64,000 nucleotides of DNA from Flavobacterium sp. (GTDB lineage Bacteria > Bacteroidota > Bacteroidia > Flavobacteriales > Flavobacteriaceae), in contig NZ_JAWUXR010000014.1 of the NCBI RefSeq assembly GCF_034111225.1, positions 10,102-74,101 of the forward strand. Direction: 5' to 3'. Positions within the stretch are counted from its first letter, which is position 1. Every line of letters begins with the position of its first letter. Under the pieces are notes generated by a model. It saw only the letters and a list, made by a program, of their open reading frames with translations. It did no database searches and was not told where the DNA came from. Of this stretch, positions 70 through 64,000 are shown in pieces. The position numbers and the translations under genes are program-made.

Positions 70-1758
70 ATGAAAGAAATCAAAAACATTTCGCGCTCTA
101 GAGCGCAAGAGTCGTCAGCAGCTATTGAACGACTGTACATTACAATGAGGCATTTATTTAACAGAGGTTTTTATAAACCAATGGGTATTTCAGGAGAAAC
201 CTTAAGAGAAGCTTTATTATCGCTTCGACCAGAAATTTACGGAAGTATTGCTGAAGAAAAGGTTGAGTTAAGCGGATTATTGTATGTAATTGAACGATTA
301 CCAATTGGTATTGAGCAATGCAGATACATTAATTTAACTTCAGATGAGGGATATTCTAATTCTCATTTTAAAGCGATTGTTCCTCCAAAAAGAAGAAGAA
401 ACTGTTATCGAATAGATGACGAACAAATGAATATTGAAATTACTCGTGGTCGTTCAGATATCTATGATATTTTAACCCATTTGACTTTTATTTTTATAGA
501 ATCACATAAAATAAAAGACCGCGTTTTAATTGATGAAGAAGGAAAAGTATCTCGCGATTGGCAAAAACTTGAAGAAACGGTTTTAAACACTAAAAAATTA
601 ACTTTAATTGAAAGAGAAAAAGCCATTTCTCATGCAGCTAATATTTTAGGGCGAACATTTGCGGAAGTACAAAACATTTATCAAGATTTCGCTACTGCAG
701 ATGCGCCTGAACGATTTTTACATATTGTTTATTGGCTAGGAAAACTTGCTATTGAAGAAGTTGTAGACAACAATAAAAGAACAATTACTTTTAGTCCTAT
801 ACTTAGAGAACGTTTAGGTCACCATATTTATGGAGAAATATGGGCTAACAACATAAAAGAAGTTTTAGAAAAAAATGATTTATTGCAAAGACCTATTCAT
901 GTTATTAGTGCAAACATGCACAGTGTAATGAATTCTATTTTTGCTAAACCGGTTTTAGAATCAAAGTACAAAGGAAAATCAGATTATGTTATTTTTGAAG
1001 ACTTAAGCAGCTCTTCAAATAATGATTTACGTAAAAAAGTAGAAACTGTTGCAATGCAACAAGGAATGGTTTTTTTACCTGATACATCAGGAACAAACAT
1101 TGATGTTCAAATTTTTGATACTGCTAAAATTGATTTAAAAAATTCAGCATTTCCTACAGCGCAAATTAATGGTGAAAAACCAGTTTTAATTGTAATGGAT
1201 TATGCTTTTGGAGAACAAGCTTATGAAACGATTGACGAGCTATTAAAACCTTATAAAAAAGGAAAAGAGAAAACATTTATTAATGTAGAGTCAGTTTCAA
1301 TAATGGGTAAAGCAGGAATTCTTCAAGGAGGAAAAGGAGACATCATGATTCCAAACGCACATATTAATGAAGGAACAGCAGACAATTACCCTTTTGAAAA
1401 CGAACTAACAGCTGAAATGTTTAAAGGAAATGACATGCCTGTTTTTGCAGGACCGATGGTTACGGTTCTTGGAACGTCATTACAAAATAGAGATTTATTA
1501 AAGTTCTTTCATGAATCTACATGGAAAGCAATAGGCTTAGAGATGGAAGGCGCATATTATCAAAAAGCCATCCAATCAGCATCTAAGATTAGAAAAAGCA
1601 TCAACCCTAACGTAAAGGTGCGTTATGCTTATTATGCTTCAGATAATCCTTTAGAAACAGGAAGCACTTTAGCGTCTGGAGGCTTAGGAACAACAGGAGT
1701 AAAACCTACCTATTTAATTACAATTAAAATATTAGAACAAATTTTCAACGTAAAATAA
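70..1758 (+). CDS. DUF6909-like conserved protein with C-terminal nucleoside phosphorylase/nucleosidase-like domain
   Basis: 562 aa; C-terminal half has IMGKAG, GLEMEGA and YAYYASDNP motifs resembling the PNP/AMP-nucleosidase fold. Confidence 0.6.
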   Translation: MKEIKNISRSRAQESSAAIERLYITMRHLFNRGFYKPMGISGETLREALLSLRPEIYGSIAEEKVELSGLLYVIERLPIGIEQCRYINLTSDEGYSNSHFKAIVPPKRRRNCYRIDDEQMNIEITRGRSDIYDILTHLTFIFIESHKIKDRVLIDEEGKVSRDWQKLEETVLNTKKLTLIEREKAISHAANILGRTFAEVQNIYQDFATADAPERFLHIVYWLGKLAIEEVVDNNKRTITFSPILRERLGHHIYGEIWANNIKEVLEKNDLLQRPIHVISANMHSVMNSIFAKPVLESKYKGKSDYVIFEDLSSSSNNDLRKKVETVAMQQGMVFLPDTSGTNIDVQIFDTAKIDLKNSAFPTAQINGEKPVLIVMDYAFGEQAYETIDELLKPYKKGKEKTFINVESVSIMGKAGILQGGKGDIMIPNAHINEGTADNYPFENELTAEMFKGNDMPVFAGPMVTVLGTSLQNRDLLKFFHESTWKAIGLEMEGAYYQKAIQSASKIRKSINPNVKVRYAYYASDNPLETGSTLASGGLGTTGVKPTYLITIKILEQIFNVK

Positions 1759-60699: not shown

Positions 60700-61704
60700 A
60701 TGAGTTCAGAAAAAGACGCTAAATTAAAAGCATTACAACTTACATTAGATAAGCTTGATAAAACTTATGGTAAAGGAACCGTAATGAAATTAGGAGATTC
60801 AGCTGTTGAAGAAATAGAAACAATTTCTTCTGGTTCGCTTGGAATTGACATTGCTTTAGGTGTAAATGGATATCCAAGAGGTAGAATTATTGAGGTATAT
60901 GGTCCAGAATCTTCTGGAAAAACAACGTTAACATTACATGCTATTGCAGAAGCTCAAAAAGCTGGCGGAATTGCTGCTTTTATTGATGCGGAACATGCTT
61001 TTGATCGTTTTTATGCTCAAAAATTAGGTGTTGATATTGATAATTTAATCATGTCTCAACCAGATAATGGTGAGCAAGCATTAGAAATAGCAGAAAACTT
61101 AATTCGTTCAGGAGCTATTGATATTGTTGTAATTGACTCGGTTGCTGCTTTGACGCCAAAGAGTGAAATTGAAGGAGACATGGGAGATTCTAAAATGGGT
61201 TTACATGCTCGTTTAATGTCTCAAGCATTAAGAAAATTAACTGGGACTATTCATAAAACGAAATGTACAGTTTTCTTCATTAATCAATTACGTGATAAAA
61301 TTGGAGTAATGTTTGGAAGTCCAGAAACAACAACTGGAGGTAACGCTTTGAAATTTTACGCATCTGTTAGAGTTGATATTAGAAGATCTACTCAAATTAA
61401 AGACGGCGATAGCGTTATTGGAAATAGAACCAGAGTTAAAATTGTAAAAAACAAAGTTGCACCGCCATTTAGAACAGCAGAGTTTGACATTATGTATGGT
61501 GAAGGAATTTCTAAAGTAGGAGAGGTTTTAGATTTAGCTGTAGAATTTGAAATTGTTAAGAAAAGCGGTTCTTGGTTCAGTTACGGAGAAACAAAACTTG
61601 GACAAGGACGAGACGCTGTTAAAGCTTTGATTAAAGATAATCCAGAACTAATGGATGAATTAGAGTTGAAAATTAAAGAATTATTAAAAGAGAAAAATAG
61701 TTAA
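60700..61704 (+). CDS. recA: recombinase RecA
   Basis: [34 protein letters not shown]. Confidence 0.99.
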
Positions 61705-61708
61705 ATAT

Positions 61709-61738
61709 AAAAATCACGTTGAAAAGCGTGATTTTTTG
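61709..61738 (+). terminator. terminator after recA
   Basis: AAAAATCACGTT-GAAA-AGCGTGATTTTT followed by T. Confidence 0.85.
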
Positions 61739-61747
61739 TTTTTAAAC

Positions 61748-61774
61748 GCAACCTTTTAAATGGTTTTGCATCTA
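61748..61774 (+). promoter_or_regulatory. putative ECF-type promoter
   Basis: GCAACC ... CATCTA with 16 nt between AAC and CAT, upstream of the ECF operon. Confidence 0.45.
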
Positions 61775-61797
61775 ATAAGTATAATATAAACTTAAGC

Positions 61798-62208
61798 ATG
61801 AAAAAATTTTCCGTTTTATTAATGTTTTTTTCGTTATTTTTAGTTTCATGTAACTTGGATGACGAACCTCGTTCTGTAGAAGTTACTCTGCCTATAGAAT
61901 CAGTAATAATTCCTCAAATAATGGAATTAAACATAGAACATGAAATATTAATTAAATATAGAAGACCAACAACGTGTCATTTGTATGATGGTTTTTATTA
62001 TCAAGCAGATGGATTGACGCGTATTTTGGCTATAAATGCAATAAAATTAAACGAAAATAACTGTCAAAATGCGGAGGATGAAGGCCCTTACGAGGTGATT
62101 TTTAGGTTTAAGCCAACCGAATTAGAAATTTATCATTTTAAATTTTGGACAGGAACGAATATAGATGGAGTTGAAGAATATTTAGAATATGATGTAGAAG
62201 TAAATTAA
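61798..62208 (+). CDS. hypothetical lipoprotein
   Basis: Lipobox LVSC followed by NLDDE; 10 nt upstream of the ECF gene. Confidence 0.75.
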   Translation: MKKFSVLLMFFSLFLVSCNLDDEPRSVEVTLPIESVIIPQIMELNIEHEILIKYRRPTTCHLYDGFYYQADGLTRILAINAIKLNENNCQNAEDEGPYEVIFRFKPTELEIYHFKFWTGTNIDGVEEYLEYDVEVN

Positions 62209-62218
62209 CAAAAAAGGA

Positions 62219-62761
62219 TTGATACTTGAACAAATCATAAATGATTGTAAGAAAGGAAATACTAATGCACAGGAGCAAATTTATAAGACGTTAAGTCCGA
62301 AAATTTTTTCAGTATGCCTTAAGTATTCGAGAAGTTATGAAGAAGCTCAAGATAATTTACAAGAAGGATTCTTATTGATTTTTGAAAAAATTGACAAATA
62401 CAATTTTAAAGGTTCTTTTGAAGGATGGTGTAAAAGGGTTGTTATAAATTACGTATTACAACAATATAGAAATCAAAATGTTTTTGAGATAGTTTCTGAA
62501 AACATTCCTGATAATAATGATATTGAAATTGACGACGAGAATGTTTCGTTAGATTTTTTAACAAGGATAATACAAGAATTGCCCGATAGGTATAGGTTAG
62601 TTTTTAATTTATATGTTTTAGATGGGTATTCACATAAAGAGATTTCAGAAATGTTAAACATTAACTCTGGAACATCTAAATCAAATTTAGCGAGAGCTAA
62701 AACGATATTGAAAGAAAAAATAGAGTTGAATTCGAAGATGTCAATTCCAAAAGTAAAATGA
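62219..62761 (+). CDS. ECF RNA polymerase sigma factor
   Basis: AQDNLQEGF, SFEGWCKRVVIN, VFNLYVLDGYSHKEI, GTSKSNLARAK; TTG start. Confidence 0.95.
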   Translation: MILEQIINDCKKGNTNAQEQIYKTLSPKIFSVCLKYSRSYEEAQDNLQEGFLLIFEKIDKYNFKGSFEGWCKRVVINYVLQQYRNQNVFEIVSENIPDNNDIEIDDENVSLDFLTRIIQELPDRYRLVFNLYVLDGYSHKEISEMLNINSGTSKSNLARAKTILKEKIELNSKMSIPKVK

Positions 62762-64000
62762 AAGAAATTAAAAGCATAGAACGTCTTTTTCAAGAGAAGT
62801 TTAAAGATTTTGAAGCAACACCTCCTTTAGAATCCTGGAACAATATTGAAGCACGTTTAAATAAAAAAGAAAAGAAAAGAAGGATTATTCCATTTTGGTT
62901 TAAATCAACAGGAATTGCTGCTTCTTTAGCAATAGCCTTTTTTCTTTTAATGAATAAAGGAAGTGATTCTAATTTGATAAAGAATGACTCAAAGATTATA
63001 AATAGTAATCCTGTGTCAAATGTAGAGGTTGAGCCTGAAAACAATACTTTTCAAACTAAATCAAATGAAGAAAACACAATTAAGAATGATAATCTATTAG
63101 ATGAAGAGTTATTTTTAAATGATGATGAAGATCTTGTTTTAGAAAATAATATTATTAATCAAAATGATAAATCTACTCAAAATAGTATTAATAATAAAAA
63201 CAACAGCTTTAACAAAAGAGTAGTTTCAATTAAAAAACAAAAAACAAATAAACCTTCTGTCAACAGCAATGAGAGATTTAACAATCAAGGTTTAGCAGTT
63301 AAGAATAAGACTCAAAATAAGACAAATAGTAAGAACGGAAAAAATTTGTTAGTTGACCAAGACACTAATCAAGGTTTAGCGGTTAATAATAAGACTCAAA
63401 ATAAATCAAATAGTAAAAACGTAAAAGAGTTGTTAGTTGACCAAGATATTAATCAAGGTTTAGTAACTAATAACAATTTGAATATTGACAATAGTAAAGA
63501 ATTATTTACTAATCAAAACAGTAACTCTTCTATAGGTAATCACTTGGTTTTAAATGATACAGAAGAAAAAAAGGCATTAATTGATAAGTCTAAACTAGAG
63601 TTGTTAAATTCAAATAATGGTCTTAATAATGAGGTTGTTATTTCTGAGAATTCTTCAGGTATAAAAAAAACAGATACTCTATTAATAGAGAATGAAAATA
63701 TAATCGCGAATGCGATTGAAGACAGTATCCTTTTGGCCTCGGTTGAAACTGAGGAAAACCCATTGGAGAAATTGCTTAAAGAAAAATTGGAAGGGAAGAA
63801 TGTTGATGAAAAAGAAAAAGAGAAAAGAAATAAATGGGCGGTAAGCACTGTTGCTTCGCCTGTTTATTTTAATTCTGTATCCAATGGTTCTTCGTTAGAT
63901 TCTAAGCTTGAAAATAACACTAAAGATTATGTAAGTAGTTTAAGTTTTGGTGTGGGCCTTGAATATGCAGTTTCAAAAAAATGGAGCATTAAAGCCGGAA
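62758..64000 (+). CDS. putative anti-sigma factor with TM helix, long disordered linker and start of an outer-membrane beta-barrel (3' partial)
   Basis: Hand-translated, open for 414 codons to the window end; ATGA overlap with the sigma stop; MKEIKSIERLFQEKFKDFEATPP; barrel-like strands from about residue 360. Confidence 0.85.
   Translation, partial: MKEIKSIERLFQEKFKDFEATPPLESWNNIEARLNKKEKKRRIIPFWFKSTGIAASLAIAFFLLMNKGSDSNLIKNDSKIINSNPVSNVEVEPENNTFQTKSNEENTIKNDNLLDEELFLNDDEDLVLENNIINQNDKSTQNSINNKNNSFNKRVVSIKKQKTNKPSVNSNERFNNQGLAVKNKTQNKTNSKNGKNLLVDQDTNQGLAVNNKTQNKSNSKNVKELLVDQDINQGLVTNNNLNIDNSKELFTNQNSNSSIGNHLVLNDTEEKKALIDKSKLELLNSNNGLNNEVVISENSSGIKKTDTLLIENENIIANAIEDSILLASVETEENPLEKLLKEKLEGKNVDEKEKEKRNKWAVSTVASPVYFNSVSNGSSLDSKLENNTKDYVSSLSFGVGLEYAVSKKWSIKAG
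63283..63473 (+). repeat. 84-bp (28-aa) in-frame tandem repeat, two full units plus a partial third
   Basis: AATCAAGGTTTAG starts at 63283, 63367 and 63451. Confidence 0.9.

Follow-up and report, generated by a model that had tools for sequence, protein, structure and literature searches.

The final 2.3 kb of a 64,000-nucleotide stretch of Flavobacterium sp. DNA (contig NZ_JAWUXR010000014.1, positions 10,102 to 74,101; the whole stretch is hereafter called the window) contain three tightly packed genes on the forward strand, all located 3' of recA. They encode a small lipoprotein, a sigma factor of the extracytoplasmic function group ECF21, and a protein predicted to cross both membranes with a single chain, like the Dma anti-sigma factors of Bacteroides. 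Together with the promoter in front of them, these genes very probably constitute a self-activating ECF21/Dma envelope-signaling operon. This assignment is built on the gene order and coupling, the domain architecture, the ECF21 affinity of the sigma factor, the remote homology to Dma1, the conservation of the promoter, and expression seen in RNA libraries from seawater. The features of the locus, in window coordinates, are the following:

61746..61774 (+), predicted ECF21-type promoter, ACGCAACC(TTTT)-N14-GCATCTA, with a -35-like element at 61746-61757 and a -10-like element at 61768-61774.
61798..62208 (+), small lipoprotein gene (136 aa), first gene of the operon; signal MKKFSVLLMFFSLFLVSC, lipobox Cys18.
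62219..62761 (+), gene of the ECF21-group sigma factor (180 aa, TTG start), assigned by Pfam domains r2 and r4_2 and by identity to ECF21 references.
62758..64000 (+), gene of the putative Dma-type anti-sigma factor, residues 1-414 of 593; the frame runs ~540 bases past the window end.
62758..62883 (+), residues 1-42, basic two-helix cytoplasmic domain, presumed to bind the sigma factor (model helices 7-16 and 24-38).
62884..62955 (+), residues 43-66, single transmembrane (TM) helix, a predicted signal anchor with the N-terminus inside (hydrophobicity, AlphaFold2 model, basic residues before it).
62956..63825 (+), residues 67-356, predicted disordered periplasmic tether, rich in N/K/E/S (pLDDT ~30, composition).
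63283..63463 (+), 84-bp (28-aa) tandem repeat within the tether, 2.2 copies (TRF score 292, 89% matches).
63721..63837 (+), residues 322-360, conserved charged helical segment before the barrel (nearly invariant columns).
63835..64000 (+), start of the predicted outer-membrane beta-barrel, residues 360-414 of 360-593 (PF13505, pLDDT, Foldseek).
60700-61704, recA, upstream neighbour of the three-gene block.
61711..61738 (+), intrinsic terminator of recA, hairpin atcacg/cgtgat followed by a T-run, read from the sequence.

The start codon of the anti-sigma gene (ATG at 62758) overlaps the TGA stop of the sigma gene in an ATGA, as the original prediction had noticed, and the frame is still open at base 64000 after 414 codons, leaving the C-terminus outside the window. 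This part was taken from a public contig, as that contig is identical to the window over the 2829 overlapping bases (0 mismatches); a gene caller had predicted the reading frame there, and an identical protein (P0001) from a protein search gives a full length of 593 aa. The first 42 residues have a net charge of +4, with KKEKKRR directly before the sole hydrophobic segment, whose Kyte-Doolittle peak lies at residues 46-64. In the AlphaFold2 model, built on a 55-sequence alignment, the two N-terminal helices are followed by a TM helix at residues 50-66. Residues 68-333 are without structure (pLDDT ~30), two helices of low pLDDT (335-345 and 349-355) stand just before the barrel, and the barrel itself occupies residues 360-593 with a pLDDT of ~85-90. 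The composition of the tether is 20% N, 12% K, 10% E, and 8% S. The basic cytoplasmic N-terminus of ~42 aa, the TM helix at about residues 43-65, the disordered linker of ~290 aa, and the barrel from about residue 360 had all been proposed from the incomplete frame; retrieving the full frame and modeling it bears out each of them, including a C-terminus that is a barrel.

Eight strands are present in the DSSP string of the model. Very short turns, at 405-408, 497-498, and 553-555, alternate with longer loops: 2-4 residues on the periplasmic side, more on the outside. This arrangement, in the model, corresponds to barrels of the OmpA/OmpX type, whose two ends are predicted to be periplasmic. 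The best PDB matches in Foldseek are the 8-stranded TM domain of OmpA, OprG, OmpW, Ail, and the N-terminal domain of OprF, with target-normalized TM-scores of 0.5-0.6. At the sequence level, PF13505 (OMP_b-brl) matches the full-length protein at the borderline (29.1 bits against a cutoff of 28.7), no Pfam or NCBIfam match was found for the first 414 residues, and a PDB search with the family profile returned no solved outer-membrane protein (OMP) at E <= 1. The chain ends in Phe, and so do 261 of 262 relatives, as expected of the beta-signal of an OMP.

A cleaved signal peptide was considered for the N-terminus and judged unlikely: in the consensus, no conserved AxA (small-x-small) site follows the hydrophobic core. 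The conservation of the 42 residues, their two-helix model, and the inward charge distribution also argue against it. Residues 1-42 are 45-68% identical across representatives of 50%-identity clusters, while the tether is not alignable. In the 53 relatives that could be parsed, the tether measures 161-359 aa, and this variation, together with the tandem repeat, suggests a change of length through gain and loss of repeats. Within the periplasmic region, only the charged helix before the barrel is conserved (motif DS..LA....N.LEKLLKEK, with near-invariant D322, S323, N334, L336, L340, and K343); for this reason, it may be a site of cleavage, a plug, or a binding site for a partner.

The Dma design became known in 2024 from gut Bacteroides. 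Its defining parts are a region at the N-terminus that binds the sigma factor, a TM helix, a tether that is long and disordered, an eight-stranded barrel, and an adjacent ECF21 sigma factor (Pardue et al. 2024, PMC10927553). In Bacteroides thetaiotaomicron (Bt), residues 1-40 of Dma1 suffice to bind the sigma factor Das1, full-length Dma1 carrying N- and C-terminal tags was detected in the membranes, and only C-terminal fragments were found in vesicles (PMC10927553). The protein of the window combines a single TM helix after a short N-terminus, a disordered tether, and, in the model, a C-terminal eight-stranded barrel; an ECF21 sigma factor is its neighbour in the operon, and it is homologous in sequence to Bt Dma1, remotely but collinearly. 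The original reading as a Dma type is therefore upheld.

The evidence for this homology comes from several comparisons. A flavobacterial profile searched against Dma1 (hmmsearch) aligned in three collinear pieces, with an E-value of 5.7e-6 for one planned comparison: the N-terminus, one strand, and the strand pair Q...Y..(I/V)PL....(L)LDKK. The anti-sigma N-terminus aligns with residues 1-59 of Bt Dma1. Scored on Dma1, an N-terminal HMM reaches 18.9 bits, when the best of 2000 shuffles reaches 13.0, and a barrel HMM reaches 18.5 bits, when the best of 2000 shuffles reaches 8.6 (0/2000 reach the real score in either case); reversed-sequence controls gave no signal. A second protein search yielded the Bacteroides Dma1 orthologues (419 aa, PF13568), and alignment of the two families with hhalign gave an E-value of 8e-5 at 61% probability, running collinearly from residue 1 to the last strand at low mact. 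On these sequence comparisons, the anti-sigma factor is a remote but genuine relative of Dma1.

The sigma factor contains the Sigma70_r2 and r4_2 domains (Pfam) and matches TIGR02937 at 9e-26. Two ECF21 references were used for comparison: with ECF21_2825 of Flavobacteria bacterium BBFL7, it is 50% identical over 169 aa (E 3e-63) and, with ECF21_1280, which is Das1 (BT_4720), 37% identical (E 6e-40). By sequence, it is a clear two-domain (sigma2 plus sigma4) ECF21 sigma factor. SigW and RpoE are its closest solved relatives, SigW being the best with only 59.7 bits. The sequences of ECF21_1280, ECF21_2825, and AS21_1280 (BT_4721, that is, Dma1) are printed in the supplement of Rhodius 2013, where a flavobacterial member of the group was, thus, already listed (PMC3817407). 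ECF21_2825, placed in ECF21 by Staron 2009 and Rhodius 2013, has the same N-terminus as the window sigma factor, but its use has been confined to an orthogonality screen of parts in E. coli, in which no anti-sigma partner is listed for it (PMC3817407).

The coupling of the two genes is conserved. A sigma homologue lies directly 5' of the anti-sigma gene in 84/84 related loci, with a 4-bp overlap in 71 of them and distances of -14 to +18 bp in the remainder. The N-terminal domain and barrel are fused in 141 of 142 new 50%-cluster representatives checked; the one that departs from this, of 337 aa, aligns to the C-terminal part of the profile only. In a library of 50%-identity representatives, the family comprises 7552 clusters at E <= 1e-3 (1666 at E <= 1e-30), the best 150 of the 7552 being all close relatives, and relatives are encoded in at least 590 species genomes. 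With such numbers, the reading frame is not a chance one. The lipoprotein gene has a homologue in 80/84 loci, which lies directly 5' of the sigma gene at a distance of 6-30 bp, and recA is present in 76/84. Beyond the anti-sigma stop, on the public contig, there is a hairpin terminator followed by a convergent gene for a PlsC-type acyltransferase; the operon therefore ends with the anti-sigma gene. The order recA, small lipoprotein gene, sigma, anti-sigma, convergent acyltransferase is a core-genome feature of the genus.

At its other end, the operon is bounded by the recA terminator, and an equivalent hairpin is found 5' of the promoter in related loci. In all 73 loci from which the spacer between recA and the lipoprotein gene could be extracted, both promoter elements are located right after this terminator. 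In their consensus, ACGCAACC mostly continues with TTTT, and a spacer of 14 nt in 68 loci and of 13 nt in 5 precedes (G)(C)ATCT(A); CGCAACC and ATC are invariant in 73/73 loci. The adjacent lipoprotein is only 28-57% identical to that of the window in the same loci, so the invariance of the promoter reflects selection. With AAC in its -35 and a short -10, the promoter is laid out like those of ECF sigma factors. The window promoter scores 37.2 with a weight matrix; all other sites in the 64 kb stay below 12, and no second copy was found there. The published ECF21 promoter Pecf21_up4014 reads GGCAACCCTTTTT...CGTCTA, the printed stretch being ...GGCAACCCTTTTTCATCCGGCTTCGTCTATATC... (Rhodius 2013, PMC3817407), and it has in common with the window promoter the GCAACC-TTTT of the -35 and C(G/A)TCTA as the -10. 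From its sequence, the motif is, hence, predicted to be a group-specific promoter of its own operon in 73/73 loci. As the lipoprotein and sigma genes are only 10 bp apart in the window (6-30 bp in relatives) and the promoter lies 5' of the lipoprotein gene, the operon most likely includes all three genes, starts at the lipoprotein gene, and activates itself.

The locus was found in seawater and estuary metagenomes and, also, in three seawater libraries labelled metatranscriptomic. In the latter, the first contig piece begins at 61794, the piece 62166-62331 bridges the lipoprotein/sigma junction, and the pieces 62559-62790 and 62266-64000 bridge the sigma/anti-sigma junction. No contig of the three libraries covers 61338-61793, and coverage of recA is thin. 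These pieces fit a transcript that runs from the predicted promoter across all three genes and may be taken as soft evidence for it.

By analogy with Bacteroides, the following mechanism can be proposed. Residues 1 to ~42 of the anti-sigma factor would remain cytoplasmic and keep the sigma factor bound at the inner membrane, in which residues 43-66 would anchor the chain. The disordered tether of ~290 aa would span the periplasm, and residues 360-593 would insert in the outer membrane as an 8-stranded OmpA-like barrel. A disturbance of the outer membrane or surface sensed at the barrel, or a failure of barrel assembly, would trigger cleavage of the tether, then intramembrane proteolysis, by which the sigma factor would be freed. 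It could then transcribe from ACGCAACC-N14-GCATCT promoters, including the one of its own operon (positive autoregulation).

Several points weigh against this picture. That the N-terminus binds the sigma factor, that the chain sits in both membranes, and that proteolysis frees the sigma factor is assumed from Bacteroides and from RseA/RsiW. The similarity to Dma1 is remote (19-25% identity), the hhalign probability is only 61%, and simple shuffles ignore the periodicity of beta-strands, so that part of the barrel signal could be that of any OMP. The number of strands was counted on the DSSP string and not on coordinates. The 42 N-terminal residues match no anti-sigma model of Pfam or NCBIfam (E <= 1) and no PDB sequence. 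The sigma factor was compared with two ECF21 references only, rather than with representatives of every ECF group, and the region upstream of Bt das1 has no obvious copy of the flavobacterial promoter motif. Finally, the RNA label of the seawater libraries was guessed; their contigs are strandless, may be DNA, and come from strains 95-99% alike.

Among the alternatives, the one that survives best keeps the architecture as proposed and changes the output, which would be a response to stress of the outer membrane or of OMP assembly, or to oxidative stress (of the Reo/EcfO or sigma-E type), with the own barrel of the anti-sigma factor reporting on BAM. The chances of this are slightly short of even. 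Reo, the orthologue of Bt Dma1 in B. fragilis, governs a response other than that of Dma1, namely to oxidative stress, and Dma3 is without a hypervesiculation phenotype (PMC10927553). The locus of the window, moreover, is without a NigD-like neighbour, unlike that of Bt, and in Algibacter and Flaviramulus, a second copy of the promoter (see below) stands before a short, terminated, non-coding transcript reminiscent of the sigma-E small RNAs. On the other hand, vesiculation is the only phenotype that has been demonstrated, for two Dma proteins (PMC10927553), and within the 64 kb of the window, no regulon member beyond the operon itself and no second promoter copy were found. The original prediction had matched the protein to anti-sigma factors that control vesiculation: the Dma type stands, but nothing in this analysis links the locus to vesiculation. 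Vesiculation is a reasonable guess, but the outputs of Dma1 and Reo differ, and no NigD gene is linked at this locus.

Improbable, in comparison, is that the protein is a true anti-sigma factor with a tether that is cut constitutively, leaving a stub in the inner membrane and an independent barrel; the barrel would then not be the sensor but cargo or a by-product. The finding of C-terminal Dma1 fragments alone in Bt vesicles would suit such a protein (PMC10927553), as would a poorly conserved tether of 161-359 aa that evolves by tandem duplication. However, dual-tagged Dma1 was detected at full length in Bt membranes (PMC10927553), the domains stay fused in the 141/142 representatives and across at least 590 genomes, and the conserved helical segment before the barrel suggests a functional junction. 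An ordinary OMP with an unusually long signal and a periplasmic N-terminal extension, next to a sigma gene by an adjacency without regulatory meaning, is very improbable: relatives are annotated only as "outer membrane beta-barrel protein" or "hypothetical", and no anti-sigma domain is recognized in residues 1-42, but these residues are the best conserved after the barrel, form two helices in the model, align with the Das1-binding region of Dma1 (PMC10927553), and are followed by a hydrophobic segment with no conserved AxA site after it, and the sigma gene is adjacent in every locus, mostly with the 4-bp overlap.

Compared with Dma1/Das1 (BT_4721/BT_4720), the plan of the locus is the same: an ECF21 sigma gene directly upstream, an N-terminus of ~40 aa, a TM helix, a tether, and an 8-stranded barrel. 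Differences are found in the details. Dma1 has 419 aa, against 593 aa in the window, since the flavobacterial tether is ~2x as long, N/K-rich, and contains the tandem repeat. The barrel scores as PF13505 here and as PF13568 in Bt, and the genes overlap by 4 bp here, while they are separated by an 8-bp gap in Bt. The first gene of the operon, encoding an Ig-like lipoprotein, has no counterpart at the Bt locus, where a divergent gene for a NigD-like lipoprotein lies beside das1-dma1 instead:

L085 2545-3264 (-), Bt NigD-like lipoprotein gene.

NigD1, encoded elsewhere in Bt, is the effector of Dma1-dependent hypervesiculation. As its paralogue, the NigD-like neighbour may belong to the same circuit.

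Other systems solve a related problem differently. RseA, which holds sigma-E in E. coli, and RsiW, which holds SigW in B. subtilis, are single-pass anti-sigma factors too, and their ECF sigma factors are kept at the membrane and freed by regulated proteolysis. Their sensing domains, however, end in the periplasm or outside the single membrane, whereas the sensor is predicted here to be in the outer membrane itself. For anti-sigma factors of the RseA type, the outer-membrane signal arrives through separate proteins (DegS and RseB). The class I anti-sigma domain (RsrA-, ChrR-, or RseA-like, zinc-binding or not) consists of four helices in ~80-90 aa, often with HxxxCxxC, and is detectable by Pfam. 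Unlike RseA and RsiW, the window protein has no detectable domain of this class: there are ~42 residues with two helices only, and no His/Cys motif in residues 1-42. FecR/FecA and RcsF-OMP-IgaA likewise carry signals inward from the outer membrane to a regulator in the cytoplasm, RcsF being a small outer-membrane lipoprotein that works with a barrel. These systems use a separate polypeptide for each membrane, in contrast to the single chain predicted here, and no relation to them was found in sequence or fold (Pfam and PDB fold searches).

To our knowledge, Dma proteins are the only regulators predicted to join the cell surface and RNA polymerase by one chain, and they have been studied only in gut Bacteroides. 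No characterized Flavobacterium member was found in the literature searched, in agreement with the original prediction, which nevertheless overstated the rarity: Dma1 homologues occur in 27/29 Bacteroidota of several classes (PMC10927553), and ECF21 was listed with a flavobacterial member in 2013. The locus is an expected relative of a family whose spread over the phylum is already published (PMC10927553); its novelty is lower than first thought, and the concept of the family is unchanged. The additions are modest: an operon of three genes, a promoter that is invariant, a partner lipoprotein, and expression in situ. The locus places the design in the core genome of a large environmental genus, beside recA and apparently transcribed in seawater (marine Flavobacterium). 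Its promoter motif is unusually clean, so that the regulon could be read out with it from any complete genome of Flavobacterium. Two further practical handles are the lipoprotein partner, conserved here and missing from the Bacteroides model, and the natural variation in tether length, through which the necessary reach of the chain could be tested.

The lipoprotein possesses, besides lipobox Cys18, two further invariant cysteines (C60 and C89). Its AlphaFold2 model (pLDDT 88.9) is all-beta, a small Ig-like sandwich. No Pfam family was found for it, and a fold search of the PDB gave only generic Ig-like sandwiches, none at E < 0.01. A relationship to NigD was rejected, as the hhalign match was limited to the lipobox. 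The gene caller used the second ATG (61822) on the identical contig, which gives 128 aa; the first ATG (61798) is the likelier start, as a normal lipoprotein signal peptide (MKK...) results. A role as co-sensor or as a shield against the protease is possible.

A second, near-perfect copy of ACGCAACC-N14-GCATCT, located upstream of recA and pointing away from it, was observed in three other Flavobacteriaceae loci, from Flaviramulus, Algibacter, and one uncultured Flavobacteriaceae genome:

L071 1200-1347 (-), second promoter copy.
L065 about 1085-1231 (-), second promoter copy.
L079 about 1326 (-), second promoter copy.

In Flaviramulus and Algibacter, the copy is followed by ~100 nt of conserved sequence without a conserved reading frame and then by a hairpin terminator, making this transcript a candidate ECF21-dependent small RNA. 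An Rfam search of the locus and the candidate gave only sub-threshold chance matches, and the window contains neither the second promoter copy nor the small RNA. Tentatively, the Dma system of Flavobacteriaceae might be seen as a three-part module, with the lipoprotein as co-sensor or brake on cleavage and, in some genera, a promoter-driven non-coding RNA, though this is rather doubtful. The Ig-like lipoprotein, with a conserved disulfide, would then work with the barrel or the pre-barrel helix in the manner of RseB or RcsF. If true, the module would be a self-contained circuit for outer-membrane homeostasis in Bacteroidota, analogous to sigma-E with MicA/RybB.

The 80 loci kept from the scan of genome contigs belong to Flavobacterium or other Flavobacteriaceae, e.g., Algibacter and Flaviramulus, and the relatives found via the anti-sigma factor are all from Flavobacteriaceae or Bacteroidota, except for two (L057 and L074). 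These are labelled as metagenome-assembled genomes of Rhizobium and Variovorax. Both carry the full recA-lipoprotein-sigma-anti-sigma block, with a recA 86-88% identical to that of the window, and probably they are Flavobacteriaceae contigs that were mis-binned and do not attest the family outside of the Bacteroidota.

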